IMG/VR virus record: IMGVR_UViG_3300033049_000020
Location: 88,465 to 152,464 of that record
From: a virus
Length of the DNA stretch: 64,000 nucleotides
Direction: 5' to 3' (one strand)
This document shows, in pieces, positions 1 through 58,811 of this stretch (the first letter of the stretch is position 1; every line of letters begins with the position of its first letter). The position numbers were made by a program, and so were the translations under genes. A model generated the notes under the pieces. The model was not told the DNA's origin and ran no database searches. It was given only the letters and a program-made list of their open reading frames with translations.

Positions 1-1
1 C

Positions 2-415
2 TTGTTACTTAGTATGAGCACAAAGTCTATGGGTACTATACTTAGAGAGCTAATGGCTGACGGAATGGATGAGGAAGATGCTGCGGATTTAGCTTTCGAA
101 TTAAAACATGGTATGATGTCCGAATCTAAAAAGAAAATCGCTTACCGATTACTTAATTTTGGTTGTAATGAACATTCAGTTAAAAATCCGATAACTAGAG
201 CATACTTTGAAGCTGTCAAAGAAGGTAAACTGAGAGATGTAGTTAGAGACTTCTGGAGATTCGACAGTTATATGTACCCAACTGGTAGATTTTACGATAT
301 TATCGGTACGTCTCCACAATGTGGAGACGCTATATCGGTTAAAAGAGTATTGGAAGCCGCATTGGTAGCAGTAGCCCCACAAGTAGCTCAAGAAGAGGAA
401 TACGCAAACGAATGA
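2..415 (+). CDS. Hypothetical phage protein (probably 5'-truncated)
   Basis: ORF at the window edge, coupled to the next ORF by an ATGA overlap. Confidence 0.6.
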   Translation: MLLSMSTKSMGTILRELMADGMDEEDAADLAFELKHGMMSESKKKIAYRLLNFGCNEHSVKNPITRAYFEAVKEGKLRDVVRDFWRFDSYMYPTGRFYDIIGTSPQCGDAISVKRVLEAALVAVAPQVAQEEEYANE

Positions 416-1122
416 AAAAAAATTTAAAAACATCAAAAGAGTGGGAAGAGTTAGTTCCCAAAAGATTTAAATTGCAAATCCTAGACCCAGATGGTTGGGA
501 TAGAAGTAACTATGAATTCTCCTTTCATGAGGAGTTGATTACGTGGGAGCAATTCCGTAACAGGATGTCTTATTCTACGTGCATTGTACATGCCGATATT
601 CATAAGTGGGATGGTTTAATATTTCGGGAGGAATTAGAAGAAAACGGATGGAAAGAAGAAGAAGGATTGTGGCGTCACGAAACGTTCGGTGCAGAAGGAT
701 TGATGTACGATGAGGCGGTACCAAACCTACCATCACAAAATGAAATACCAGAAGGCTGGATGGATTGGAATAATCAGTCAATGGACTTCTATGTAAGTGT
801 ACTTGGGGGGTGGCAATTCCAAAGTAGTGGAGAAGCTAAAGCTATATGCAAATTGATAGCGTTCTATGAAGCCAACAAGGATAGAGACCCAAACCGAACA
901 GAAACGGAACTATACTCAATCAAAGACGAGTGGGTGCGACATAACGCTAAAACAGATAGAGTAATTGCAGAAGGAACTAATCGTATAAATGGAATGTTCA
1001 CAATGGAAGAAGCTCAAGCGTATGTAGCTAAACAAGATGAGAGGGTAGAACTAGAGAAGTTCAACCAATATAGGTTACACTCTTTTATAATAGAAGAAAT
1101 CACCAGTAAACCATTAGTATAA
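412..1122 (+). CDS. Hypothetical phage protein
   Basis: 236 aa ORF in a tightly packed + strand run. Confidence 0.7.
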   Translation: MKKNLKTSKEWEELVPKRFKLQILDPDGWDRSNYEFSFHEELITWEQFRNRMSYSTCIVHADIHKWDGLIFREELEENGWKEEEGLWRHETFGAEGLMYDEAVPNLPSQNEIPEGWMDWNNQSMDFYVSVLGGWQFQSSGEAKAICKLIAFYEANKDRDPNRTETELYSIKDEWVRHNAKTDRVIAEGTNRINGMFTMEEAQAYVAKQDERVELEKFNQYRLHSFIIEEITSKPLV

Positions 1123-1123
1123 G

Positions 1124-1360
1124 ATGGACTTAGAAAAACAATGGAACGACTTACGTAACGATGGTAAATTATTATCATATATTGAGGATAAGTTTGACCA
1201 CTATAAAGAACTTGGCTATCAAGTAAGTGCCTTCATAAGCTCTTCTTATATTAGTATTGGAGATGAGAGTATCACAGGCAACAAATCCATGTACCACGAA
1301 TTAAAGAGTATTCATGATATGGATGCGTACTTAAAAGATAAAGAGGAAAGTCAACCATGA
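1124..1360 (+). CDS. Hypothetical protein
   Basis: Packed ORF with ATGA coupling. Confidence 0.6.
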   Translation: MDLEKQWNDLRNDGKLLSYIEDKFDHYKELGYQVSAFISSSYISIGDESITGNKSMYHELKSIHDMDAYLKDKEESQP

Positions 1361-1677
1361 ACAAACTACACGCAAGAAAAATAAGTGAAACCATACCTGA
1401 TGTTGCAATATTCAACATGCTGGAACGTGCTAAGACTGAGGTAAAGGATTGGTCGGTTCCATGTAAGGTGAATGGTCAGATAAGTAGGGGACATTTCTGG
1501 AACATGTTCGCATGTCAACTTAAAGCTCCAGATTTTGAAATCGTGAGTAGTATGGTTAAGTATAGTCTTATATATGAGTTCGGTGACCTACTTCCAAAGG
1601 AGTACCAACCACCCAAAAAGAAAAAAGGTAAGGAGTTACCATTAAACTATATTCATTCAGAACCAAAATTTAACTAA
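1357..1677 (+). CDS. Hypothetical protein
   Basis: Packed ORF with overlapping start/stop. Confidence 0.65.
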   Translation: MNKLHARKISETIPDVAIFNMLERAKTEVKDWSVPCKVNGQISRGHFWNMFACQLKAPDFEIVSSMVKYSLIYEFGDLLPKEYQPPKKKKGKELPLNYIHSEPKFN

Positions 1678-2174
1678 TGGAAACAGATGGAGATTACGAT
1701 ACTGGATGGGATGAATCAGAAGATACTGAACTAGAAGCATGGGATGTAGAAACGGATTCTGAAGACCCAGAATTTGAAACTGGTAAGGAACCAAATAAGG
1801 ATATTGATTATTTATACATTCTTGGTGAGGCTTGGCCAGTATATCCGCAAGGTATCACCACTATTTTCGAAGATAAATATGAAAGACCTCATATTGTATC
1901 TAGAGAGCAATTTGATGCTATTCACACCAAATACTCTTGTATAGATATTGATGATGAGGTAACGGCTATCGATATAGTCAAAATTGGAAACACATCTTAC
2001 GAATTTACCATTAAAGAACTTAATATCAGATGTCGCTCTAACTATCCTTGGGCATTCTTTGAGAACACTCCAGAGAATAGACCGAAAATCAATGAGTACT
2101 ATAGACAGAAAAAGAATAGAGAAGAGTTGGCTGAAATAGTTGAAGTATTAAGAAACGATATTGCACAACTATGA
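1677..2174 (+). CDS. Hypothetical protein, acidic N-terminus
   Basis: Packed ORF with TAATG coupling. Confidence 0.65.
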   Translation: METDGDYDTGWDESEDTELEAWDVETDSEDPEFETGKEPNKDIDYLYILGEAWPVYPQGITTIFEDKYERPHIVSREQFDAIHTKYSCIDIDDEVTAIDIVKIGNTSYEFTIKELNIRCRSNYPWAFFENTPENRPKINEYYRQKKNREELAEIVEVLRNDIAQL

Positions 2175-2380
2175 ACGAAGAAGTTACCCACTTCAATTAT
2201 TGTATAGCTAGACCATGGAAAAATAATCCAAATAGTCTATCCGCATACGCTTTAGGTACTCAATTATTTTATGGTACTATGGAGGAGGCTGAAGACACAA
2301 GAGCGAATATAAGTAAACGAGCTGGAAAAGAATATGAAATCTATAAGCTTGATAATCAACCACTTATGAGAAAACCTTAA
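2171..2380 (+). CDS. Hypothetical protein
   Basis: Packed ORF with ATGA coupling. Confidence 0.55.
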   Translation: MNEEVTHFNYCIARPWKNNPNSLSAYALGTQLFYGTMEEAEDTRANISKRAGKEYEIYKLDNQPLMRKP

Positions 2381-2397
2381 AATATTTTACAAAAGAC

Positions 2398-2428
2398 TTG
2401 TATTATCCAAATACTTTTCGTATCTTTG
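2398..2428 (+). promoter_or_regulatory. Bacteroidetes-type sigma-A promoter of tRNA operon 1
   Basis: TTG (2398) ... TATCTTTG (2421-2428) matches the -33/-7 TTTG/TAnnTTTG consensus. Confidence 0.8.
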
Positions 2429-2459
2429 TACTATATTTAATAGAAAGACATAAACAGTT

Positions 2460-2528
2460 ATGAGAAACTTTAACGACATATTCGAATTCAACTTTGCCGC
2501 ATTTGCGGAGGAGGATGATTGCATCTAG
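2460..2528 (+). CDS. Attenuator leader peptide MRNFNDIFEFNFAAFAEEDDCI
   Basis: 22-codon ORF (ATG 2460, TAG 2526-2528) between promoter and terminator; 5 Phe, 3 Glu, 3 Ala, 3 Asp codons. Confidence 0.8.
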   Translation: MRNFNDIFEFNFAAFAEEDDCI

Positions 2529-2530
2529 AT

Positions 2531-2604
2531 GCCAAAGGATATGTTGTAAACGAAACTCAATACGATATACAAAACCTTTGGCTAACCAGTCAAAGGTTTT
2601 TTTT
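2531..2604 (+). terminator. Attenuator: antiterminator overlapping an intrinsic terminator
   Basis: Terminator AAAACCTTTGGCT-AACC-AGTCAAAGGTTTTTTTT (2571-2604); competing helix GCCAAAGG (2531-38)/CCTTTGGC (2575-82) extended by TATGTTGTA/TACGATATA. Confidence 0.8.
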
Positions 2605-2698
2605 ATGCCTTAAAATTAAAATATGCGACCTAAGCTAACTTGGTAGAAGCACTGGCTTGAAACCCTTCTTTCTAATAGAAGTAAAACAATTAGAGTGA

Positions 2699-2710
2699 GT
2701 TCTTTGACAT
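2699..2710 (+). promoter_or_regulatory. boxA-like antitermination site (also 3447-3458, 15846-15856, 21373-21384)
   Basis: GTTCTTTGACAT / GTTCTTTGAAA resembles rRNA-operon boxA; always upstream of RNA genes. Confidence 0.6.
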
Positions 2711-2721
2711 CTTGGTTAAAT

Positions 2722-2795
2722 GGGGTAGTGGTAGAGTTGGTCAATTGCGTTCGGTTGAAGCCCGAAAGATGTAGGTTCGATTCCTACCTGCCTCA
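2722..2795 (+). tRNA. tRNA-Phe(GAA)
   Basis: Acceptor GGGGTAG/CTGCCTC; TTCGG-TTGAAGC-CCGAA; GTAGG-TTCGATT-CCTAC. Confidence 0.85.
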
Positions 2796-2859
2796 CAAAA
2801 GTTTGAACTATTTTTACACTTTTCAGTCTTTGTTGATATTTATATTAAACGATGATATT

Positions 2860-3276
2860 ATGGAAAAGAAAATTTGTACACGATGTGAAGATAGTAAAGA
2901 GTTAGACGACTTCAGTTGGAAGAGTAAAGTAAAAGGGACTAAACAGTCTAAGTGTAAAGTATGTATGCGTGAGTTGGATAAGATAAAATACGCTAATGAT
3001 ACTGAAAGGAGAAGAAGAATAAGGGAAACCGCAAAACTGGCTTATATTAGGAATCGTGATTTTGTGCGGAGAGTAAAAAGGTTGGGTAGCTGCTCTGAAT
3101 GTGTAGAAGATAGGTGGTATTGTTTAGACTTCCATCATTGTGGAGATAAAGAGTTTGAACTTAGTGATATGGTACATTCTGGGTATTCCATTATTAAGAT
3201 TAAAAAGGAAATTAGAAAATGTAAGCTTCTATGTGCTAATTGTCATAGAGAAGAACATTACCAGAATGGTTATTGA
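2860..3276 (+). CDS. HNH homing endonuclease with N-terminal Cys/Zn domain
   Basis: CxxC ... LDFHH ... C.LLCANCHREEH; likely start ATG 2860, since the track start at 2695 overlaps a tRNA. Confidence 0.8.
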   Translation: MEKKICTRCEDSKELDDFSWKSKVKGTKQSKCKVCMRELDKIKYANDTERRRRIRETAKLAYIRNRDFVRRVKRLGSCSECVEDRWYCLDFHHCGDKEFELSDMVHSGYSIIKIKKEIRKCKLLCANCHREEHYQNGY

Positions 3277-3312
3277 CGCGGTTCGAAACTGGTAGGTCGC
3301 ACCAAAACATAC

Positions 3313-3385
3313 GTGACAGTAGCTCAGTTGGTAGAGCATCGCCCTGAAGAGGCGAGTGTCGGGGGTTCGAGACCCTCTTGTCACA
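3313..3385 (+). tRNA. tRNA-Phe(GAA)
   Basis: GTGACAG/TTGTCAC; canonical D arm; TCGCC-CTGAAGA-GGCGA. Confidence 0.9.
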
Positions 3386-3549
3386 CAGCTAATATTTTAG
3401 CCAGAAATAGCTAAAATAGAGGTAAATAGTTAATATATTAGCTATTGTTCTTTGACATCTTGGTTAAATGGTGCTGTATGCAAGCGGTTCAACGCAGCAA
3501 TTTGACATTTTCTAAATGTTTAGTATATTTATATTAAAATAGATATATT

Positions 3550-4176
3550 ATGGTAAGAAAATGGAGAGAAAAGGAAATTGAGTTTTTAAAGCTTAATTAT
3601 GGTGCTAATGGTTGTAAATACGTTTGTGAAAAATTAAATAGAGGTAGAGGTAGTGTACAGAAAAAGGCTAAAGTCTTCAACCTGAAAGTAGATAGGAAAA
3701 AAATTTATTATTCAGTGGAAGTTGTTAGTAGAATAGTCAGTGAAAGTATGTCGATGAAGGATGTGGTGTTGGCATTAGGTAAAAGTGTTAGTGGTAAACA
3801 ATATAAGGTAATAAAAAAGTTTATAGATGATAATAGTATTGACGATACACATTTTAATCCTTACCACTTAAATAAAACTAATTTAAAAATTGGTAGAGTC
3901 ACATATCCAATTGACCATTGGCTTAAGAACGGTTCTAATATTAGTAGTTCTAACTTAAAGGTTAAACTATATAAAGAAGGTCTGAAGAAGAGGGATTGCG
4001 AAATGTGTGGGCAAGGTGAAGAATGGTTAGGTAAAAAAATGAGTTTAATACTTGACCATATTAATGGGGTGAATGATGATAATAGGTTGGATAACTTAAG
4101 GATTGTTTGCCCTAATTGTAACGCTACCTTGGAAACCCATTGTAGAGGTAGTAAGGGATTAAAACAACGTGCGTAA
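3550..4176 (+). CDS. HNH homing endonuclease
   Basis: CEMCG ... LDHINGVNDDNRLDNLRIVCPNCNA. Confidence 0.9.
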   Translation: MVRKWREKEIEFLKLNYGANGCKYVCEKLNRGRGSVQKKAKVFNLKVDRKKIYYSVEVVSRIVSESMSMKDVVLALGKSVSGKQYKVIKKFIDDNSIDDTHFNPYHLNKTNLKIGRVTYPIDHWLKNGSNISSSNLKVKLYKEGLKKRDCEMCGQGEEWLGKKMSLILDHINGVNDDNRLDNLRIVCPNCNATLETHCRGSKGLKQRA

Positions 4177-4250
4177 TGCAATTGGGTGCGCAACTGGGCT
4201 TTCACCCCAGCTACATTGTTAGAGAGTGGGTTCGATTCCCACACGCATGA
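4168..4250 (+). tRNA. tRNA-Glu(TTC), long variable region
   Basis: CGTGCGT/ACGCATG; CTGGG-CTTTCAC-CCCAG; overlaps the HNH stop codon. Confidence 0.75.
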
Positions 4251-4444
4251 CTATACAACCTTGTGTCTATATGACTTCGAGGGTTCGAATCCCTTCGGCA
4301 CTACATTATTGGTGTTCCAAATTGACCTAAAATTGAGTGTTTTGGAACACCAATAACCAGCCAAAACTACCTGTTTTAGGGTACATTTGGCTGGTTATAG
4401 AACGCGGAATGTACTTAAATGTGGTAGATTCCGAGAAATATCAC

Positions 4445-4517
4445 CGCCCGTTGGTCTATCGGTTAGGACGTCTGGTTTTCAACCAGAAGGTGATGGGTTC
4501 AATTCCCATACGGGTGA
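4445..4517 (+). tRNA. tRNA-Glu(TTC)
   Basis: CGCCCGT/ACGGGTG; TCTGG-TTTTCAA-CCAGA. Confidence 0.85.
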
Positions 4518-4519
4518 CC

Positions 4520-4543
4520 TTGACAATCTGGAAAGACAGATAA
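4520..4543 (+). repeat. 24-nt inter-tRNA repeat TTGACAATCTGGAAAGACAGATAA (second copy 5909-5932)
   Basis: Exact repeat; boxA-like TTGACA followed by the hairpin ATCTG-GAAAGA-CAGAT. Confidence 0.7.
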
Positions 4544-4547
4544 TTAT

Positions 4548-4624
4548 GGGGGATGGGACTGCTTTGGAGTGGTCACCTCACTTGCAATGAGGAAATCAGA
4601 TGGGTTCGAATCCCATATCCTCCA
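4548..4624 (+). tRNA. tRNA-Ala(TGC)
   Basis: G3:U70 pair; CCTCA-CTTGCAA-TGAGG. Confidence 0.85.
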
Positions 4625-4689
4625 CTCAATGTGGGACTTTGATTTACTTTTTCTCCACTTTGCGTATATTTATAATAAAGACTAAATAA

Positions 4690-5469
4690 ATGGCTAAGTG
4701 TAAGAATATTGAGTGTAAAAATAATACAGAAGGTAAACGAGTTTATTGTTCGTTACAGTGTAGGAACTATTATGTTAACAAATATATTAGGGACTACAAT
4801 AAAAATAGCAAGGGGCTTGCCAAAGACGCTAAGAAAGTTTATGAGGACAACCCTAAATATTGCTTAAACCCTAATTGCGGAGAGAAGATAACATATAAGA
4901 AAAGAAGGAACCAATATTGTAATAGCTCATGTCAGGCGTCTGTTACGGGTGTAGGTAGAATTGTTAGCGAAAGTACTAGGGAAAAGCATAGATTAAGTAG
5001 GTTAAAACAAATTGGTGATTACAAAAAGGTTGATTGTAAATGGTGTGGTTCAGAACTATTAGTTATGAATAGAAGACTATATTGTGATTCAGAATGTAGA
5101 AGAAAATATAATCGTAAGAATATGGATGAGTTCTTAATCTACAAAGCTGACACAAAATTCGGTTTTAATTTGGGTGATTATCCTAAAGAATTTAATTTTG
5201 GGCTGATAGAGGAACACGGTTGGTACTCACCAACCAATTCAAGAAAGCCTAATATTGGTGGTATAAGTAGAGACCACATGTTATCAGTTAGAGAAGGGTT
5301 TAATAGTGGGATAGACCCAAAATTATTGAGTCATCCAGCCAATTGTAAATTGATGATTCATGGTGATAATATTAGTAAGAATAAGAAATCTAGTATAACA
5401 GAAGAAGAATTAAAGGAAAGGATTAAAGAATGGAATAAGAAATATGGGGCTATGGTGACAACTGGCTAA
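4690..5469 (+). CDS. HNH-like homing endonuclease with Cys-rich repeats
   Basis: Repeated C..C...YC...C motifs; C-terminal SRDH...HPANCKLM...NISK. Confidence 0.7.
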   Translation: MAKCKNIECKNNTEGKRVYCSLQCRNYYVNKYIRDYNKNSKGLAKDAKKVYEDNPKYCLNPNCGEKITYKKRRNQYCNSSCQASVTGVGRIVSESTREKHRLSRLKQIGDYKKVDCKWCGSELLVMNRRLYCDSECRRKYNRKNMDEFLIYKADTKFGFNLGDYPKEFNFGLIEEHGWYSPTNSRKPNIGGISRDHMLSVREGFNSGIDPKLLSHPANCKLMIHGDNISKNKKSSITEEELKERIKEWNKKYGAMVTTG

Positions 5470-5519
5470 CACGTTGCTTTTGCAAGGCAGAGATGGGGTA
5501 TCGTACACCCCTAGCTCCA
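5446..5519 (+). tRNA. tRNA-Ala(TGC), atypical T loop
   Basis: GGGGCTA/TAGCTCC with G3:U70; loop TTTGCAA; T loop ATCGTAC. Confidence 0.75.
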
Positions 5520-5544
5520 CTTATTAACTTAAAAATGAAGTAAA

Positions 5545-5814
5545 ATGAGACTTACAGAGAAAAGAGAAATGCTTATGAAATTGGGTGAGAACCTAATGAG
5601 TAAAGGTGGTAAGCTAACACTTAACTTCACCAACGGTAGTATGAGGTATACGGAGCTTATAGCTTCTGAACAGTATCACTATCAAAGTGACAAACGATAT
5701 GTCGAAATATCGGCTATGGTTCATTTCAGTGAACCAAACGTCTACAGGGTAATACCTATAGGCACTAATACAATTAGTTTTGTACTGGAAACACTTCTGA
5801 GTAACTCCAAGTAA
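5545..5814 (+). CDS. Hypothetical protein
   Basis: ORF between tRNAs. Confidence 0.55.
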   Translation: MRLTEKREMLMKLGENLMSKGGKLTLNFTNGSMRYTELIASEQYHYQSDKRYVEISAMVHFSEPNVYRVIPIGTNTISFVLETLLSNSK

Positions 5815-5833
5815 CCGCTTGGCATCAGTAATT

Positions 5834-5905
5834 GGTCTTGAAGCACAATGGCTGTGCAACTCGTTGTCTGCGAGAAAGTTGCGAGTTCGAATCTCGTCAG
5901 GACCG
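5834..5905 (+). tRNA. tRNA-Asp(GTC)
   Basis: GGTCTTG/CAGGACC, G73; loop TTGTCTG. Confidence 0.8.
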
Positions 5906-5934
5906 CCTTTGACAATCTGGAAAGACAGATAAAT

Positions 5935-6017
5935 GGATATGGCGCATAACGGCTGGTGTACCTGACTGTCACTCAGGTGTGTGTAACACGTAGTGGGTTC
6001 GACTCCCATCATATCTG
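5935..6017 (+). tRNA. tRNA-Asp(GTC), long variable arm
   Basis: GGATATG/CATATCT; CCTGA-CTGTCAC-TCAGG. Confidence 0.8.
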
Positions 6018-6053
6018 CCCTTGACTTTTTGGTACTTAGCCATATTTATATGT

Positions 6054-6695
6054 ATGAGGAAACCAAAAACGATACATTACCTTTACAAGACTACTTGTAA
6101 AGTAACAAATAGGTACTATGTAGGGATGCATAGTACCAACGACTTAGAAGACGGTTATATGGGTTCTGGAAGAAGGTTACGAGCCTCAATCAGGAAACAT
6201 GGTGAAGATAACCATACCAAAGAGATATTGGAGTTCTTTGATGATAGAGGACGACTGATAGAAGCAGAGAAGGAATCTATTACCTTAGACATGATTGATG
6301 ATAAGGATTGTATGAATCTGATGGGAGGTGGAACAGGTGGTTTCATCAGCGAAGACCAACAGAGGCATCGTTCAACGATTGCAGTGGAGAAGAGAGAAAA
6401 GAAGAGAGAGGACGACCCAGAGTGGGATAAAGAGTATAGACAAGCTCAATCCCTATCATTGATGAAGCAATATGAGAGTGGTAAGCGAGTATCCAAGCTC
6501 CCAAACTGGGAAGGTAGGAAACATTCAGAAATTACTAAAGAGAAGATGAGGGAGACTAAGAAGGGACAAGGCTCTGGCGAAACTAACTCTCAATACGGTA
6601 CTTGTTGGATAACCAAAGATGGTTCCAACAAGAAGATTAAGAAACAACTTCTTGATTCATTCCTTACTGAAGGATGGGTTAAAGGTAGAAAATAA
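6054..6695 (+). CDS. GIY-YIG (Seg-like) homing endonuclease with NUMOD3-like motif
   Basis: YLYKTT...YYVGMH...YMGSG; GRKHSEITKEKM. Confidence 0.85.
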   Translation: MRKPKTIHYLYKTTCKVTNRYYVGMHSTNDLEDGYMGSGRRLRASIRKHGEDNHTKEILEFFDDRGRLIEAEKESITLDMIDDKDCMNLMGGGTGGFISEDQQRHRSTIAVEKREKKREDDPEWDKEYRQAQSLSLMKQYESGKRVSKLPNWEGRKHSEITKEKMRETKKGQGSGETNSQYGTCWITKDGSNKKIKKQLLDSFLTEGWVKGRK

Positions 6696-6742
6696 TTTGG
6701 ATAGGTCGAATATTTTACGTATCTTTTACGTATCTTTGTAGG

Positions 6743-7009
6743 ATGAAAAGATTTAAGATAGGCGATACGTTCGTCAATAATGTAGACCATAGTAAGGTTA
6801 GTTCTAAAGGATATGACCATGCAGTTAACTACCTGCCATACACTTCAGAACCAGATGAAAGTTTGGAAACTATTGGTAAAACACAAACGGTTATAGATAT
6901 TGAAGATGGTGATACTATAATCACTGATTTTGTTTTATCATCTGGAGAAACGTACTGGTTTGAAAAGGATTCCTCATACGCAGAAAGTTGTAAAAAAATA
7001 CGAATGTAA
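6743..7009 (+). CDS. Hypothetical protein
   Basis: ORF directly after a TATCTTTG promoter. Confidence 0.6.
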   Translation: MKRFKIGDTFVNNVDHSKVSSKGYDHAVNYLPYTSEPDESLETIGKTQTVIDIEDGDTIITDFVLSSGETYWFEKDSSYAESCKKIRM

Positions 7010-7112
7010 GAGCAAGCTGTCGTGAGACGCTGTATTGGGTTCATTACCCGATAAGTCTACGGTTAAAGGTGGTACCATTGTTAACTTATAGGTGCAATTC
7101 CTATTACATTCG
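7002..7112 (+). ncRNA. Expanded tRNA-like RNA, CAT anticodon
   Basis: GAATGTA/TACATTC acceptor; ATTGGG-TTCATTA-CCCGAT; ATAGG-TGCAATT-CCTAT; oversized D and variable regions. Confidence 0.5.
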
Positions 7113-7203
7113 CTAAGGTTGAATACAGCAAACAAAAATTCCGAGAGATGTGCCCACGGGCACCCTTCCCGACCAAATTCCCGAAAGGGGTCAACCTACA
7201 TTC

Positions 7204-7275
7204 CGTCCTATGGTGTAACGGCTAACATGCTACCCTGTCACGGTGGCGCTAGGGGTTCGATTCCCCTTGGGACGG
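7204..7275 (+). tRNA. tRNA-Asp(GTC)
   Basis: CGTCCTA/TGGGACG, G73; CTACC-CTGTCAC-GGTGG. Confidence 0.85.
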
Positions 7276-7739
7276 CTCTGGAACTTTTGTACCTTAGCTA
7301 TATGAGGAAACAAAATGATGGTGTTTCAAGTAGAAAATAATTTGTAAATGTCAAATAAATTTTGTATCTTTGTATTATGAGTAGATATGAAGTAAGGGTA
7401 ATATGGTACGAGGGTGCCACTCAAACTGAAATAATCACAGGTAACCTAACCATGGGTAATAATTATTATCAGATAGTTGACGAAGATTTTAAGGACTGGT
7501 TCTTCCCAATGGGAAGAACCGTAATTCAAGAACTATGAAAGGATTTATATTTTGTATATGGATGTTTATGGATGTTTATAACACTTGTACTTGTACTTAG
7601 TCTTATAGGTTTGTGGGTGGTATTACCTACCACAACACATTACGTTGAAGGTCCGCCAAACATCATTAGAAGTGACTGGATGATATTAGGTGACAAATTA
7701 CTGGAAGCGGTATTAACGGATAAGAAATAAAACTGACAG

Positions 7740-7967
7740 ATGAAACTTAAGAAATTTATAAAGAACTTAGAAGCGTTCGCAAAGAAACATCCAGAAGCAT
7801 TGGAAATGACGGTAGTAACTGCCATTGATGATGAAGGTAACGGATTCAATGAGGTGTACTTTACTCCAATATTGGGATTCTACGAAGATAGAGAATTCAT
7901 GTCTGTTGAGAATATGGAGGAGTACGAAAGACCTCCATCTGACATCAACGCTGTCTGTGTGAACTAA
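7740..7967 (+). CDS. Hypothetical protein
   Basis: Small phage ORF with a DDEGNGF motif. Confidence 0.6.
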   Translation: MKLKKFIKNLEAFAKKHPEALEMTVVTAIDDEGNGFNEVYFTPILGFYEDREFMSVENMEEYERPPSDINAVCVN

Positions 7968-8188
7968 TGGGTAATAAGAAAATAAATAGGCTGCTTATCA
8001 ACATGAAGAACAAGATTGATATTATTAACGGTTCAATCAACATGGTTCATGAGATGAGGCGAGGAGAAACGATTACGTTAAATGGAATACACCGATTGGA
8101 AGTCGGGATGTCAGAGTCTACAACCAATGACGAGTACATCGGAATAATAGACAAGTTGATTGATGAGAGAGATAACCTTCAAAATTAG
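7967..8188 (+). CDS. Hypothetical protein
   Basis: TAATG coupling. Confidence 0.55.
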   Translation: MGNKKINRLLINMKNKIDIINGSINMVHEMRRGETITLNGIHRLEVGMSESTTNDEYIGIIDKLIDERDNLQN

Positions 8189-8844: not shown

Positions 8845-8960
8845 TGGCGTATGGTGTAGTGGTAGCACACTTATAACGGAACCTGACCAAGGTTCTATTC
8901 AGCAACAAAAATTTCCATTTCGAGGAAGTAGCGGAGGTTCGATTCCTTCTACGTCAACCA
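8845..8960 (+). ncRNA. tRNA-like RNA whose anticodon arm is replaced by an insert of about 55 nt
   Basis: TGGCGTA/TACGTCA-ACCA; intact D arm and GGAGG-TTCGATT-CCTTC T arm. Confidence 0.6.
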
Positions 8961-21558: not shown

Positions 21559-21569
21559 CTTTTTAATCT

Positions 21570-21663
21570 CTAGTAATGTGCGAGTGGATTAAGCAACTGG
21601 CCTTGGAAACCAGTGAGGACTTCAAGAGGTTGTCTTCCGTAGGTTCGAATCCTACTTACTAGA
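21570..21663 (+). tRNA. tRNA-Pro(TGG), long variable arm
   Basis: CTAGTAA/TTACTAG; loop CTTGGAA; GTAGG-TTCGAAT-CCTAC. Confidence 0.75.
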
Positions 21664-21784
21664 AATGACTAAGTTAACTACTTCCACGTAGTAGTCATTG
21701 GAAACAGGTAATGCTGGCTAAAAGTTAACAAAAAATTCTGGTCACTTTCTCTGACTTGAACATATTTATATAGAAATAGATATT

Positions 21785-22326: not shown

Positions 22327-22412
22327 TGAGCGATATGCAAACTGGCAAGCAAACAGGTTTTGAACCTGTCGTGACGAAAGTCCAATTGTAGGTTCGAACC
22401 CTACTCGCTCAA
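22327..22412 (+). tRNA. tRNA-Gln(TTG), long variable arm
   Basis: TGAGCGA/TCGCTCA; ACAGG-TTTTGAA-CCTGT. Confidence 0.8.
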
Positions 22413-22467
22413 CCGTTTACTTTTCTGTACTTTTTAAGTACATTATACAATAACAAAAAATGATACT

Positions 22468-24788: not shown

Positions 24789-24876
24789 GACTCCATAGTT
24801 CAATTGGTTATCCCGAAAGGGTGTAGAATAGTTGCCTTTTAAGCTTCGGATTTGGGTTCGAGTCCCAATGGAGTCA
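24789..24876 (+). tRNA. tRNA-Lys(TTT) with D-loop hairpin insert
   Basis: GACTCCA/TGGAGTC; loop CTTTTAA; insert ATCCCGAAAGGGT. Confidence 0.7.
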
Positions 24877-31726: not shown

Positions 31727-31999
31727 ATGAAAAGAATACTATTAGTACTTGCGGTTGCGGTGACATTTATGTTCACTATTACAAGCTGCACTGAGAACCA
31801 AAGAGCAAAGCGATTTGGTGGGAATATGACAATCAACCTACCAGCAGGTCAGAAATTGGTTGAGGCAACGTGGAAGAACGAAGACCTTTGGTATCTCACC
31901 AGAGATAGACGAGAAGGAGAAGTGGTTGAGAAATTTAGCTTCGTTGAAGAATCCTCATTTGGGATTATTGAAGGAAGTGTAACCTTTATAGAGAAATAA
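31727..31999 (+). CDS. Putative lipoprotein
   Basis: Signal peptide ending ITSC; TENQRAKRFGG. Confidence 0.7.
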   Translation: MKRILLVLAVAVTFMFTITSCTENQRAKRFGGNMTINLPAGQKLVEATWKNEDLWYLTRDRREGEVVEKFSFVEESSFGIIEGSVTFIEK

Positions 32000-32152
32000 A
32001 CCATGTCAGTATTTGCAATGAACATATTATTTGTCTTCCTTAACGGAGGAGTATCAATTTTGAATTACAACATTGGAAACCACAAGACATCATTATTTTC
32101 AATGTTTGTGGTTGGATGGTGTGCTGCCTTGGCATTTAAAGCAATCCTTTAA

Positions 32153-44300: not shown

Positions 44301-44837
44301 AATAGGACTTGGAGTATATCTAAGTCCACCACAACACACGATAGGCTTAAGAAAGACCCTATGGAATGGTATTATTACCATACCTTATATGCTGAATCAC
44401 GTAAATCTTGGTTGGAGATACCGTTTGTTGAGATAGCTAAGAAGTTGAAAGGTAGACCTGATTGGATTGTGGGTGATTTTGGTTGCGGTGAGAACCTATT
44501 GGCTAAGGAAGTCGATAATAAGGTTCATGGATTTGACCATGTGGCTATCAATGACTCGGTAGTATCGTGTGACATAACCAACGTACCACTAGAGGATGGG
44601 GTATTAGACGTTGCGGTGTTCTCATTATCCTTGATGGGTACTAACTACAAGGGATACTTCCAAGAAGCGTATAGAACGCTTAAATCCTATGGTAATATAT
44701 TCGTATGTGAGCCAGCAGCCAAATGGGAAGGAAGAGAAGAACAACTTAAGGCTGAATTAGAAGTAGTCGGTTTCAAGTGTTTCGGAACCATAAGGAATAC
44801 TGACAAATTCATTTACGTTGATGGTGTTAAGTATTAG
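41316..44837 (+). CDS. Multidomain protein: Zn-repeat array + SF2 helicase + Rrp8-like SAM methyltransferase
   Basis: YDYSKV..CPEHG.FEQ..GC..C repeats; GTGAGKT, DEVH, SAT, GRLQR; VGDFGCGE, DVAVFSLSLMGTN. Confidence 0.85.
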   Translation: MTDKTKEFIQKLKDSGYWNDEYDYSKVEYVNSKTKVIIIDKKFGTEHKIKPNNILSQGFKPSIRNAVDRNEYLVNQFREVHGEWYDYSKANYVGNGKVKTTIICPEHGEFEQSVAKHIFGQGCTKCGGNEKDITTERFLQKLKDSGYWNDEYDYSKVNYVNGNTKVIVIDIKLDTEHLITPTKLLVNNKCTIQNAVDQNEYLIKRFEEVHGGRYDYSKVEYVNSYDNVIIICPEHGEFEQTPTNHRRGAGCRECGGNKPLTTEGVIEQFKEVHGEGYDYSKVRYSGIDNKVIIICPEHGGFEQTPYDHRKGAGCSICNRGWNRGHLIRFFSDMEKGRDILLMDSMELMRLIEQGKLPREVQELVFEMDDTGDNTLRDLKDRVLGEDGTEEPTTQSGETDTTTDTEEGVETPQRTQTEDEEVGEEPEPTLPTMGGIDDLLVLDNEMVVTCDDETVEFFISHRLNKYWNGVINGERDVNELIGSEGGVNFQTTKQRFLEEYQEVMDYQVPEGYNFRDKNGKLLQPFMMQKLTVLRVKNYRRYGNWSGTGAGKTNAFIITSREIDSRLTLVVGLNATINQLGEDILSVFPDSVIHTRYSKGTTYDRSKHNYLLLNYEKFQQDYSEGLFQDLNDNNQIDFVVIDEVHNVKQRTTDDESIRRGTLMRLVGRAEETNPNLHLLAMSATPVINNLTEAKSLLHMTTGEEYNDIHNRSTISNAIRVFSHLTRNGIRYRPNYDIKVNELSGENTPHLRIDGMHLIDRLVTLSNTDYVGVERTLLDDKLNAVFNDIDKGTIMYSYYTDDGIIPRLIADHIKRLGFSYGLYTGEVGTSERVSTLNDFIDGKIDVLITSGPISTGVDGLQKVSNKIIITTLPWTDANYVQLKGRLQRTGSIFKEVDIIIPQIHIEYDGEPWSLDSQRLAILRNKRTIADAAVDGVLPSQSMVTMKGLHTEAFKSLAVIKERLELDGARLSQRNKLTFPLRPEVVETMGRKLGDFSEMNRTWSISKSTTTHDRLKKDPMEWYYYHTLYAESRKSWLEIPFVEIAKKLKGRPDWIVGDFGCGENLLAKEVDNKVHGFDHVAINDSVVSCDITNVPLEDGVLDVAVFSLSLMGTNYKGYFQEAYRTLKSYGNIFVCEPAAKWEGREEQLKAELEVVGFKCFGTIRNTDKFIYVDGVKY

Positions 44838-45477
44838 AAGCTATGTACTTTGGGGACTTCCACAAGAAGTGATTGCTAGAACGCTATTCCCAATGGGTGA
44901 TTACTTGAAGGCTGATATTAGAAAGATGGCAGAAGATAGAGGATATAAGGCTATTGCTACTAAGTCAGAAAGTTATGAAGTTTGCTTCATTCCAGATAAT
45001 AATTATCGAGGATTCTTATCTCGAAAGAGAGAAATCAAAGGTGGTAACTTCTTGGACATGGATGGTAATGTAATGGGAACTCATGATGGGTATCCATTCT
45101 TCACCATTGGACAAAGAAGAGGATTGGGGATTGAAGGTGGCGCTGACCCGTATTTTGTTTGCGCCATTAATCCTAAGACTGGTGACGTGGTTTTAGGTAG
45201 AGAAAAGGACTTGATGCGTAAGAGTATGTTGGTGACTGATATCAACACTGTTAAGTACCCAATCGAAATGTTGGATGGTATGGAAGTACTTGCCAACGTG
45301 AGATATAGAGGCGCTAAAGTGACTGGTAAGTTGACCGATATGGGAGATGGTATATTCAGAGTAGACTTCAATCACCAAGTTAAGTCTATAACTGCTGGTC
45401 AATCCACTGTGTTCTACGATGTTAAGTATACTGACGATGTAATCGGTGGTGGACATATACATAGTGTATTAGAATAG
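44838..45477 (+). pseudogene. mnmA: Orphaned C-terminal half of mnmA (frame still open; in-frame ATG at 44821)
   Basis: SYVLWGL.QEV.ARTLFPMG...ESYEVCF...GQRRGLG...GQS...GGG; lacks the SGGxDS domain. Confidence 0.8.
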
Positions 45478-47284: not shown

Positions 47285-47355
47285 CTTTATGTCACAATAA
47301 TATAAAGTTTTTACTACTTTCACATTTTAGTTCATAGTTATATCTAAACGGGATT

Positions 47356-47952
47356 ATGAAAGAATGTGTTAAATGTGATGAGATAAAATTGGATGATGAG
47401 TTTTACTTGAGGGGTTCCCCTAAAAAGTTGACTAAATATTGTAAAGACTGTATAAAGAAATCTGATAAGGAGCGAAGAATTAGGCGACTCATGAAGTCAG
47501 ACCCAAATAAGGCTAACCGAATACTAACTCTCCATAAGGAGAAAGAAGTTAGAGATAAAACTAAACGAGATGGGTGTTCTTGGTGTTACAAATGTAAAGA
47601 ACATGTCCCAAATGAAGGCTTCTCAGAGTATAATTTGGGAAATCATGGTTCGTGTAGGAATTGTTCCAATATGGATTCGATACAAAGAACTAGAAAATTA
47701 AAATTAGAGGGTATTGAATATTTAGGTGGTTGTTGTAGTATTTGTGAGTTTATAGGTCACTACTCAGCATTTGATTTTCACCATAAAGATTCATCAACTA
47801 AAGAGTTTGATTGGAGAATAGGTAGGAAGATGACATTTGAAAAAATTAAAAAAGAGTTGGATAAATGTGAACTACTTTGTGGTAACTGCCACTCAATGGT
47901 ACATAGTAAATTAAATAATAATGGTACATTAAATAATATGTACATCATCTAA
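47356..47952 (+). CDS. HNH homing endonuclease
   Basis: YLGG.C..C...FDFHH...ELDKCELLC.NCH..VH. Confidence 0.85.
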   Translation: MKECVKCDEIKLDDEFYLRGSPKKLTKYCKDCIKKSDKERRIRRLMKSDPNKANRILTLHKEKEVRDKTKRDGCSWCYKCKEHVPNEGFSEYNLGNHGSCRNCSNMDSIQRTRKLKLEGIEYLGGCCSICEFIGHYSAFDFHHKDSSTKEFDWRIGRKMTFEKIKKELDKCELLCGNCHSMVHSKLNNNGTLNNMYII

Positions 47953-57685: not shown

Positions 57686-58051
57686 ATGAGCTTAATAAAA
57701 TTTGAATTAACTAACGACCACTTAAAGCTGGTCAAGCAACTACGATTTACCAAGGGTAAAGGAATCACAATCAATGCAGCAGACGAGTTCGGCTCACCAT
57801 TCGGTGGGGACAATTTGTATGAAGACATGGATGTAATTCTATCTGGTAAACCAGAGGTCAACTTTGACCCATTAGGAGAGCCAGAACCATTAGATATGGA
57901 GGCTATTGAACTATACAAGAAACTATACGATGAACTTCCAACCGCGTTAGAAGTAATGTTGAACCTCAACACCTTTGAAACGGGACACTACAAACGTAAG
58001 TTCCATCAACGAGGTTACTGGAAACTATATACACCAAAGATTGAGTCGTAA
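57686..58051 (+). CDS. Hypothetical protein
   Basis: ORF after promoter; PFG...YEDM motif. Confidence 0.65.
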   Translation: MSLIKFELTNDHLKLVKQLRFTKGKGITINAADEFGSPFGGDNLYEDMDVILSGKPEVNFDPLGEPEPLDMEAIELYKKLYDELPTALEVMLNLNTFETGHYKRKFHQRGYWKLYTPKIES

Positions 58052-58388
58052 ATGTGGAGAATTAAATACTTGCTACATGATTGGTTTGGAATCAATTGGT
58101 CTAAGGATATTAGTTGTAAACATAGGTGGGTAATGAGTGAAATGTCAAAGAACATATGTCTTGATTGTGACGCTACCAGATGTCATTGTAAATGTGGATT
58201 ATATAAACACTAATTATGGATAATATACGTTGTTATTTATGTGGAAGATTTATCGGAAATAAAGACTTCGAAGCCAATAAGGTTGACGTGAAGTTCACGC
58301 CTGACACGGAATTCACGTCAGAAGATATAAAACATTATCATTCAGAGTGTATGTGCAAAATTAGTCAGAACAGTAAAAACAAAAAAAT

Positions 58389-58811
58389 ATGAGTGTAGAT
58401 TTTTATGGTTGCGAATCATGCGGCAATTCGAGATACGAAGAGTATGTAGCAGCATGTAATAAGTGTTACAATGACTTATGCGTATCATGTCTGGTTGATA
58501 AGAACACTATAGAGGTTGATTCCGACTTCGCATACGTATATGGGTATAGGTTCGACTCTAAGAACCCAGAACTAATGGAGCGTTACAAGTCAGAGGGATT
58601 CTACCTTTATAACGAGGATGGTACAACTGACTACGAAGATGGTGAAATCATCGGTGACAGTGGTATTGATAGTAAGTACTGCCCGTTTTGTGCTGGTAAT
58701 AAAATAGACAAAGTAGAAGTGTTAGGTTACCTATTAGGTAAATGTGGACTAAGCCTTGATGAGGCTTGGGAAGAAATGAAAAAATCATATCAAAAAGAAG
58801 AGAATGAGTGA
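58389..58811 (+). CDS. Cys-rich hypothetical protein
   Basis: Four CxxC pairs. Confidence 0.65.
   Translation: MSVDFYGCESCGNSRYEEYVAACNKCYNDLCVSCLVDKNTIEVDSDFAYVYGYRFDSKNPELMERYKSEGFYLYNEDGTTDYEDGEIIGDSGIDSKYCPFCAGNKIDKVEVLGYLLGKCGLSLDEAWEEMKKSYQKEENE

Follow-up and report, generated by a model that had tools for sequence, protein, structure and literature searches.

How does a phage come to carry a transfer RNA (tRNA) gene in two pieces, with a second, complete tRNA gene for the same amino acid and an endonuclease gene lying between them? The question is raised by a tRNA-Phe(GAA) locus on a 152-kb viral contig of IMG/VR (IMGVR_UViG_3300033049_000020), from which we analysed positions 88465-152464, a stretch of 64,000 nucleotides (nt) called the window here; positions are those of the window unless the contig or another locus is named. 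The contig has 36.5% G+C and a CheckV completeness of 43%, and 43 ARAGORN tRNAs and a transfer-messenger RNA (tmRNA) were found on it. The split tRNA-Phe stands at the head of a tRNA array with only the isotypes Phe, Glu, Ala and Asp and with four interspersed endonuclease genes (Table 1), and the first tRNA of the array begins 20 nt past the terminator of an upstream leader open reading frame (ORF). We suggest that the locus is probably the scar of a homing-endonuclease-driven insertion into an older tRNA-Phe(GAA) gene.

The two halves are parts of one tRNA-Phe gene, because the 5' half is homologous to intact tRNA-Phe genes, the acceptor strands match at seven of seven positions and the 3' piece encodes the CCA end. 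The 5' half reads through the acceptor strand GCGACCT, the D-arm, the 5' strand of the anticodon stem and the loop TTGAAAC into two or three C, and it ends after the anticodon loop at 2665, just as an initial annotation of this DNA had described. It gives a partial nhmmer match to positions 5-41 of the tRNA profile, and megablast against 50,697 phage records aligned 34-46 nt of it at 94-100% identity with tRNA-Phe genes annotated in Pseudomonas phage PPSC2, in its relatives and in Cellulophaga phage Calle. Direct reading also bears out that the 3' half resumes right past the stop codon of the HNH gene at 3276. It consists of CGCGG (3277-3281, a junction or T-stem remnant), the T-loop TTCGAAA (3282-3288), the 3' strand of the T-stem CTGGT (3289-3293) and the acceptor strand AGGTCGC (3294-3300), followed by A and by CCA to 3304. 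All seven pairs of AGGTCGC with GCGACCT (2625-2631) are Watson-Crick pairs, with a chance probability of about 6e-5 at a fixed position, and CCA is encoded in just 5 of the 43 tRNAs of the contig and also in the PPSC2 homologue. The loss of "a few" nucleotides from the outer gene, claimed initially, is real and larger than that wording implies, about 10-13 nt (positions 41 to 50-53), and only three of the five T-stem pairs are still possible.

Over 31-36 nt, the segment 2632-2665 with its unusual D-arm (GCTAACTTGGTAGAAGC) matches tRNA-Phe genes of unrelated Pseudomonas (Otagovirus) and Cellulophaga (Callevirus) phages (L001, L002, L010-L012) at 100% identity; a tRNA-Phe of this type may itself be moving from phage to phage. 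In the Calle_1 record (L002, MT732432.1) the tRNA-Phe sequence lies at about 31972-32045, some 50 nt off the annotated feature (32025-32097), which looks like an offset in the annotation of the record.

The insert between the halves measures 611 base pairs (bp) and contains a spacer, a boxA-like leader, a tRNA-Phe(GAA), a promoter-like element and the HNH gene in this order, so that the boxA, the complete and distinct tRNA-Phe(GAA) and the HNH gene reported earlier are all present. The spacer and leader (2666-2723) are identical at 58 of 58 positions in a related locus, L024, and 76% identical in another, L013, where they start at the same nucleotide. The anticodon-arm 25-mer of the nested tRNA was found in seven metagenome loci and in L013; we conclude that the nested tRNA is the conserved tRNA-Phe of this phage group, the outer type being found otherwise in unrelated phages. 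The promoter-like element (2813-2849) has homologous copies ahead of the next two endonuclease genes (3502-3538 and 4643-4679).

The boxA-like/TTGACA 24-mer of the leader (2700-2723) is repeated exactly at 3448-3471; it was considered as a sigma-70 promoter and rejected, as no usable -10 element lies at 16-18 nt spacing. A second conserved leader type, the perfect 24-nt repeat TTGACAATCTGGAAAGACAGATAA, occurs at 4520-4543 and 5909-5932 and also at L013:901-924 and L024:3554-3577; it sits right past a canonical tRNA and just ahead of the next tRNA, which is non-canonical in the window. An integrase-type insertion with duplication of an attachment (att) site was likewise rejected, the 3' piece (TTCGAAACTGGTAGGTCGCA) being unlike the 3' end of the nested tRNA (TTCGATTCCTACCTGCCTCA), and no integrase ORF was found in window positions 1-8000.

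The product of the HNH gene, P0001, matches PHROG 2255 'HNH endonuclease' (E = 1.8e-28), and its profile matches the HNH motif of McrA (PDB 6ghc); against Pfam alone no match was obtained at E <= 0.01. The His...Asn...His arrangement of the beta-beta-alpha-metal fold is present with CxxC zinc ligands, and the motif columns C78, C81, H93, C121/C125, N127, C128, H129 and H133 are invariant across eight homologues. P0001 has no GIY-YIG match, which places it outside the GIY-YIG sequence family of SegB, a homing endonuclease discussed below; a separate GIY-YIG gene lies further along the array. The ORF is free-standing, with no intron match around it and with its own promoter-like element. Database homologues are few (34-62% identical), and all six contexts that were fetched lie in tRNA clusters beside tRNA-Phe or tRNA-Arg. 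The HNH homologues of the cultured phages SUSP1, Pectobacterium DU_PP_I, Yersinia fHe-Yen9-03 and E. coli phage I14.1 are in tRNA clusters where matching tRNA halves were not obvious on inspection.

At the same locus SUSP1 carries a canonical tRNA-Arg(UCU) (L043:438-511) and vB_EcoM_I14.1 an oddly ordered tRNA-Arg-like gene (L046:707-~790) with an HNH gene directly after it. The anticodon hairpin precedes a D-type motif in the I14.1 gene, and no leftover halves were seen there on inspection.

The 611-nt insert is not an intron: part of the outer gene has been lost, no ribozyme core is present and joining the halves does not produce a tRNA. ARAGORN called a tRNA in none of the 279 in-silico joins of the outer halves, while the same joining procedure gave many tRNA calls for a split tRNA-Arg elsewhere on the contig, described below. 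The ARAGORN intron mode, allowing introns up to 1000-3000 nt, found nothing, and no Rfam group I or group II intron matched at E <= 10, confirming the initial remark that no group I core is visible. Outside the HNH ORF the insert has only 194 nt, of which 75 are the nested tRNA. The 5' junction follows a C, not a U, at position 40 in the anticodon stem and not in the loop, which does not fit a group I intron, and the folded joined halves form no cloverleaf, which does not fit a split or bulge-helix-bulge tRNA.

Two further pairings were tried and set aside. For a helix between the insert ends, co-folding yielded the acceptor stem only, at an energy about 2 standard deviations below shuffles. 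CCAG at 3261-3264 was read as closing the anticodon stem on its 3' side, with 13 nt left for the variable arm; it lies inside the HNH coding sequence, and the resulting join gave neither a tRNA call nor a cloverleaf. The L013 homologue reads TAAA at this site; L013 is without the outer gene, so this excludes nothing by itself.

Informative relatives of the locus came from a second metagenome scan, for which the nested-tRNA pattern was the query; earlier scans had been aimed at close relatives or at the outer tRNA-Phe in intact form, of which a single protein scan and a first metagenome scan returned nothing, and three exact-pattern scans of viral contigs returned nothing or unrelated phages only. 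We compared four syntenic loci with a common upstream leader ORF and terminator, both of which are kept in the relatives L013, L022 and L024. L013 has the same module (spacer, leader, tRNA-Phe, promoter and HNH with 62% amino acid identity) in 604 versus 611 bp, beginning at the same spacer nucleotide and ending at the HNH stop codon as in the window. There the T-loop that directly adjoins the module belongs to another tRNA, whose 3' end is 88% identical to the 3' end of the first tRNA of L022 and 59% to the window 3' piece, and the right junction is at the T-arm in both of these different tRNAs. The first tRNA of L022 is unbroken at the same locus, and given the 88% identity L022 therefore shows the L013-type tRNA in its unbroken form; L022 also holds, after this intact first tRNA, a 5' fragment of the tRNA-Phe that stands third in the window, a leader, a nested-type tRNA-Phe and another HNH gene (32% identical). 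Through the last base of the nested tRNA, L024 and the window share 89% identity, with a 5' half 93% identical at the same place.

The presence of the HNH gene at this locus varies, with the homologue in L013, none in L024 and a different HNH in L022. The cassette behaves as a discrete unit, its left and right ends being the same in the window and in L013 although the flanks differ. The split layout is not an assembly artefact, because the left junction is found in the independent metagenome contig L024 and the cassette in another, L013. The alignment with cassette-free relatives proposed in the initial annotation succeeded in part: it yielded a relative without the HNH gene (L024) and a relative with its first tRNA whole (L022), and none with the intact outer tRNA-Phe.

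We detected a second nested case on the same contig, upstream of the window, in which a tRNA-Arg gene is split around a tRNA-Arg(UCU) and the HNH gene of P0011, a paralogue of P0001 (31% identical). The 5' fragment comprises the acceptor strand GCCTCCA and the D-arm, followed by the complete tRNA-Arg(UCU), a hairpin, a promoter and P0011; flush with the P0011 stop codon the 3' fragment continues with a UCU loop, the T-arm and the acceptor strand TGGGGGT, which forms 7/7 pairs with GCCTCCA. Joining these fragments in silico leads to tRNA-Arg calls. P0011 has 393 homologues, and in every context read a tRNA-Arg (UCU or ACG) precedes the gene, represented in L029 by a sequence that resembles tRNA-Arg(UCU) but is irregular. 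Halves that match each other enclose the unit in L027 (GCCCCCA/TGGGGGT), L029 (GCCCCTA/TAGGGGT) and L033 (GGTTCCA/TGGAATC); in L028 and L031 a single flank is present and in L038 neither, and the tRNA-Arg and HNH units of L031 and L033 lie outside tRNA arrays. The 3' fragment starts at most about 10 nt from the HNH stop codon in the window, in L013 and in the Arg loci of the contig, L027, L028 and L033, and about 15 nt from it in L029. A same-isotype tRNA lies inside the insert in every two-sided case, and the acceptor halves match 7/7 in six of these six cases. Because related nuclease and tRNA inserts split tRNA-Arg genes here and in other phages, the layout looks like a route by which a homing nuclease can take up residence in tRNA genes without an intron.

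The sequences of the halves covary among these loci. Acceptor pair 6-67 changes from C:G in L027 to T:A in L029, and the orphan T-stems are 96% paired, two of their five pairs being changed on both sides; their covariation score is 0.56 versus 0.18 in shuffles, a value reached by 4 of 500 shuffles. This suggests either that the halves derive from distinct alleles that were functional when captured or that selection still acts on the hairpin, and the covarying orphan T-arm hairpins may retain a role, for instance in transcript processing or as an immune half-site.

A course of events can be proposed for the probable nuclease-driven insertion, in which the target of the nuclease, a nested copy resistant to it and the succession of steps are what we infer. 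The older tRNA-Phe was the first gene past the array leader and terminator, and its positions 1-40 and about 51/54-76 are the parts that now flank the module. P0001 or a close relative would have cut this resident gene between the anticodon arm and the T-arm, and the break would have been repaired by copying the nuclease gene and its neighbouring tRNA from a donor, the first insertion probably using non-homologous or microhomology joining. With about 10-13 nt lost, the outer gene is dead and no splicing can restore it; tRNA-Phe function would be carried on by the nested copy and by the third copy next door. The leftover halves could then act as exon-like short homology arms, without splicing, for homing into intact copies in other phages. 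More tentatively, and as a possibility that we rather doubt than favour, the module might be a distinct mobile element, an intron-free, self-compensating homing cassette that cuts a tRNA gene, brings an uncut tRNA of the same isotype and uses the halves as homology arms; turnover and duplication of tRNAs and the litter of fragments in large phage tRNA arrays would then stem from repeated rounds of this process.

Several observations weigh against this proposal or parts of it. The initial annotation had spoken of an intron-less homing cassette that destroys its target tRNA and rescues the function; the split gene, the lack of an intron, the discrete unit and the recurrence with tRNA-Arg agree with it, and the rescue is weakened by an intact third tRNA-Phe at 3313-3386, absent from that description, which adjoins the locus, so that the nested copy was not needed to keep the function. 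The nested tRNA-Phe is present in nine loci including the window and is followed by HNH in only three (window, L013 and L022), and it may be a bystander rather than cargo, flanking DNA carried along in homing. Cutting of the outer tRNA-Phe gene by P0001, with the nested copy spared, is putative, and the homology arms would measure only about 25-40 nt. An intact outer tRNA-Phe was not found in any relative of this phage. For L013, which is without the 5' half, another deletion or a left junction of a different kind must be assumed. L024 retains the 5' half together with the nested tRNA but has neither HNH nor 3' piece, so that a one-step model needs later recombination or deletion; it is plausible that L024 was derived via recombination within the leader and tRNA that the loci share. 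In L024, a relative without endonuclease genes, isoacceptor pairs are present as well, indicating that duplication is not always linked to a nuclease.

Free-standing endonuclease genes commonly insert on their own, and the locus could instead have been built in two events, the leader and tRNA-Phe entering or truncating the outer gene without a nuclease and the HNH gene inserting later downstream with the removal of a few more nucleotides. In L024, 5' half, spacer, leader and nested tRNA occur without HNH, the different HNH (32% identical) of L022 is at the same spot downstream of a nested-type tRNA and L024 resembles the clean empty site of this L022 gene, and P0001-family HNH genes adjoin intact tRNAs in L014 and L016. 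We nevertheless consider two events unlikely, since L013 holds the whole module with the same two ends and a different flank, tRNA-Arg and HNH occur together in the nested position in at least four contigs and stay together even outside tRNA arrays (L031, L033), and no tRNA-in-tRNA lacking a nearby endonuclease trace was seen save L024, explicable by recombination in the shared tRNA. Nuclease-independent scrambling, in which illegitimate recombination at conserved tRNA segments produced the nesting by chance and the HNH gene is a bystander, would suit the many orphan T-arm fragments and odd tRNAs of the contig and the mosaic arrays with repeated leaders; it is quite improbable, because tRNA 3' fragments start close to the stop codon of one HNH family at the window, L013 and the Arg loci, and because each two-sided insert contains a same-isotype tRNA between acceptor halves that match throughout. 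That the outer gene is functional, its insert being removed at the RNA level (a self-splicing, enzyme-cut or tRNA-shaped intron) or its halves assembling in trans as in split archaeal tRNAs, is barely credible, as the perfect complementarity of the acceptor strands and the covariation of acceptor and T-stem pairs among related loci stand against the absence of positions 41-50/53, the failure of every join, the negative ARAGORN intron mode and Rfam searches, a junction after C in the anticodon stem, the lack of a cloverleaf and of any insert-end helix beyond the acceptor stem, and the dropping of one half in the relatives L013 and L024.

The closest known system to the insertion proposed here appears to be SegB of T4 and T6, a free-standing GIY-YIG homing endonuclease of the phage tRNA cluster. 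The recognition motif of T4 SegB, GGTTCRANTCC, lies in the part of tRNA genes that encodes the T-psi-C stem-loop, and the enzyme drives the inheritance of nearby tRNA genes (PMC2330249), and SegB amplifies a unit of tRNA-Tyr and segB (PMC13096335). In both systems a nuclease gene lies among phage tRNA genes, without an intron, and is present or absent among relatives (PMC2330249; PMC13096335). The right-hand junctions of the window cassette are likewise at the T-arm, and while SegB is inherited with neighbouring tRNAs and can duplicate a tRNA and nuclease unit, the window cassette is a tRNA and nuclease unit. In contrast to SegB, a GIY-YIG enzyme that acts by clean region replacement through flanking homology, the nuclease here is an HNH protein (PHROG 2255), and its module, with a same-isotype tRNA, stands between the two dead halves that remain of the target.

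Homing endonucleases of mobile group I introns, which lie in tRNA anticodon loops and in phage genes (PMC3984707), similarly place a nuclease gene in a tRNA gene whose parts are potential homology arms; unlike such introns, the present locus has no ribozyme and no exact exon ends in the loop, 10-13 nt are missing and the function comes from another gene copy. In the 'fractured genes', where an endonuclease gene lies between split-intein halves, a free-standing nuclease also splits a gene and the element itself keeps the function, but this is achieved by protein trans-splicing, whereas here a dead RNA gene surrounds a complete second gene (PMC2677866). The intronless homing and trans-homing of T4 seg and mob genes, in which the nuclease cuts a conserved neighbour in nuclease-less genomes and the flanks are co-converted (PMC2790892; PMC2988022), and the nuclease genes that mark mosaic borders at phage exchange boundaries (PMC10448857) are comparable, but they leave the neighbouring gene intact by allele replacement. 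No description of a nested same-isotype tRNA inside a broken target was found in the searchable literature.

Table 1. Features of the split tRNA-Phe locus, its array and related sites (window coordinates unless stated).
Feature	Position	Strand	Basis or remark
Intrinsic terminator of upstream leader ORF	2571-2604	+	Terminator-like hairpin and T-run
5' half of outer tRNA-Phe(GAA), positions 1-40/41, dead gene	2625-2665	+	Phage tRNA-Phe identity; nhmmer
Insert left end: 34-nt spacer and 24-nt boxA-like/TTGACA leader	2666-2723	+	Comparison with L024 and L013
Nested complete tRNA-Phe(GAA), very unlike the outer one	2722-2796	+	ARAGORN; Rfam tRNA 57.8 bits
Promoter-like element before HNH gene	2813-2849	+	Sigma-70-like match
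HNH homing-type endonuclease gene P0001, 138 amino acids, apparently intact	2860-3276	+	PHROG 2255
3' piece of outer tRNA-Phe	3277-3304	+	Direct reading; acceptor complementarity
Third intact tRNA-Phe(GAA)	3313-3386	+	ARAGORN; Rfam 64.4 bits; 9 nt past 3' piece
Candidate 5' fragment (acceptor GGTGCTG and D-arm) of second split tRNA	3470-3497	+	Resembles tRNA-Glu 5' part
HNH P0002 (3550-4176) and complete long-variable-arm tRNA-Glu(UUC) (4168-4251), candidate cassette	3550-4251	+	Pfam HNH; PHROG 10822
Orphan T-arm and acceptor CGGCACT, candidate 3' fragment	4279-4303	+	Pairing with 3470-3476
Endonuclease genes of the array	2860-3276; 3550-4176; 4690-5469; 6021-6695		HNH; HNH; HNH-like ORF; GIY-YIG/NUMOD3
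Nested tRNA-Arg case	contig 57701-58423 (window -30763 to -30041; L026:2202-2924)		5' fragment, tRNA-Arg(UCU), P0011, 3' fragment
Orphan pieces	contig 57096, 57345, 59593, 59698, 59911, 62357, 64718, 64834, 83248, 83630; window 17336, 17539, 23066

The unit of P0002 and tRNA-Glu in the same array is a candidate for a further nested case. The fragment at 3470-3497 is similar to the beginning of the tRNA-Glu with a long variable arm in L024 and L022, and L042 has a fragment at the same position together with an orthologous unit of P0002 and tRNA-Glu. CGGCACT and GGTGCTG pair 7/7 (five Watson-Crick and two G-U pairs), which is weaker than in the Phe case; the joins called tRNA carry an implausible Thr anticodon, and L042 has the 5' fragment only.

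The leader ORF, which is rich in Phe, Glu, Ala and Asp, and its terminator (2460-2604) precede the Phe/Glu/Ala/Asp tRNA array. Long variable arms occur on tRNAs other than Leu, Ser and Tyr, namely on Glu, Asp, Pro and Gln tRNAs of the window (4168-4250, 5935-6017, 21569-21664, 22327-22414 and 24789-24876) and on Met, Asn and Cys tRNAs upstream of it, and tRNA-Phe genes of the relatives have a D-loop insertion of about 16 nt (L022:2019-2112, L024:2899-2991). Next to these odd long-arm and D-loop tRNAs there is often a canonical tRNA that shares their anticodon, also at sites free of endonuclease genes. Orphan T-arm and acceptor pieces, or tRNA-like genes uncalled by ARAGORN, occur in all tRNA arrays, several of them directly following endonuclease ORFs. 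A tRNA-like gene at 8845-8957 has good acceptor, D and T arms, with 53 nt replacing the 11-nt core of the anticodon arm and a GAACC/GGTTC hairpin inside; the 53-nt insert could be an intron or a remnant, or the gene could be a tRNA-like RNA. Upstream of the window lie the tmRNA gene and two adjoining amber-suppressor-type tRNA(CUA) genes (contig 44751-45125 and 47335-47483), and the table 11 ORFs of the window look normal despite these tRNA(CUA) genes.

Homing endonucleases are thought to persist in self-splicing introns and inteins or between genes. The split tRNA-Phe locus would represent a third route for a homing nuclease, the breaking of a dispensable RNA gene combined with the bringing of a working copy, and the matching, covarying halves provide a simple sequence signature for cataloguing such cassettes and their past targets in metagenomes. 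If cleavage is confirmed, this route would explain the several very different tRNAs per anticodon, the many tRNA fragments and the mosaicism between relatives in giant-phage tRNA arrays. It would also tie in with the evidence that tRNA-linked nucleases help phages to renew tRNAs attacked by host defences (PMC13096335).

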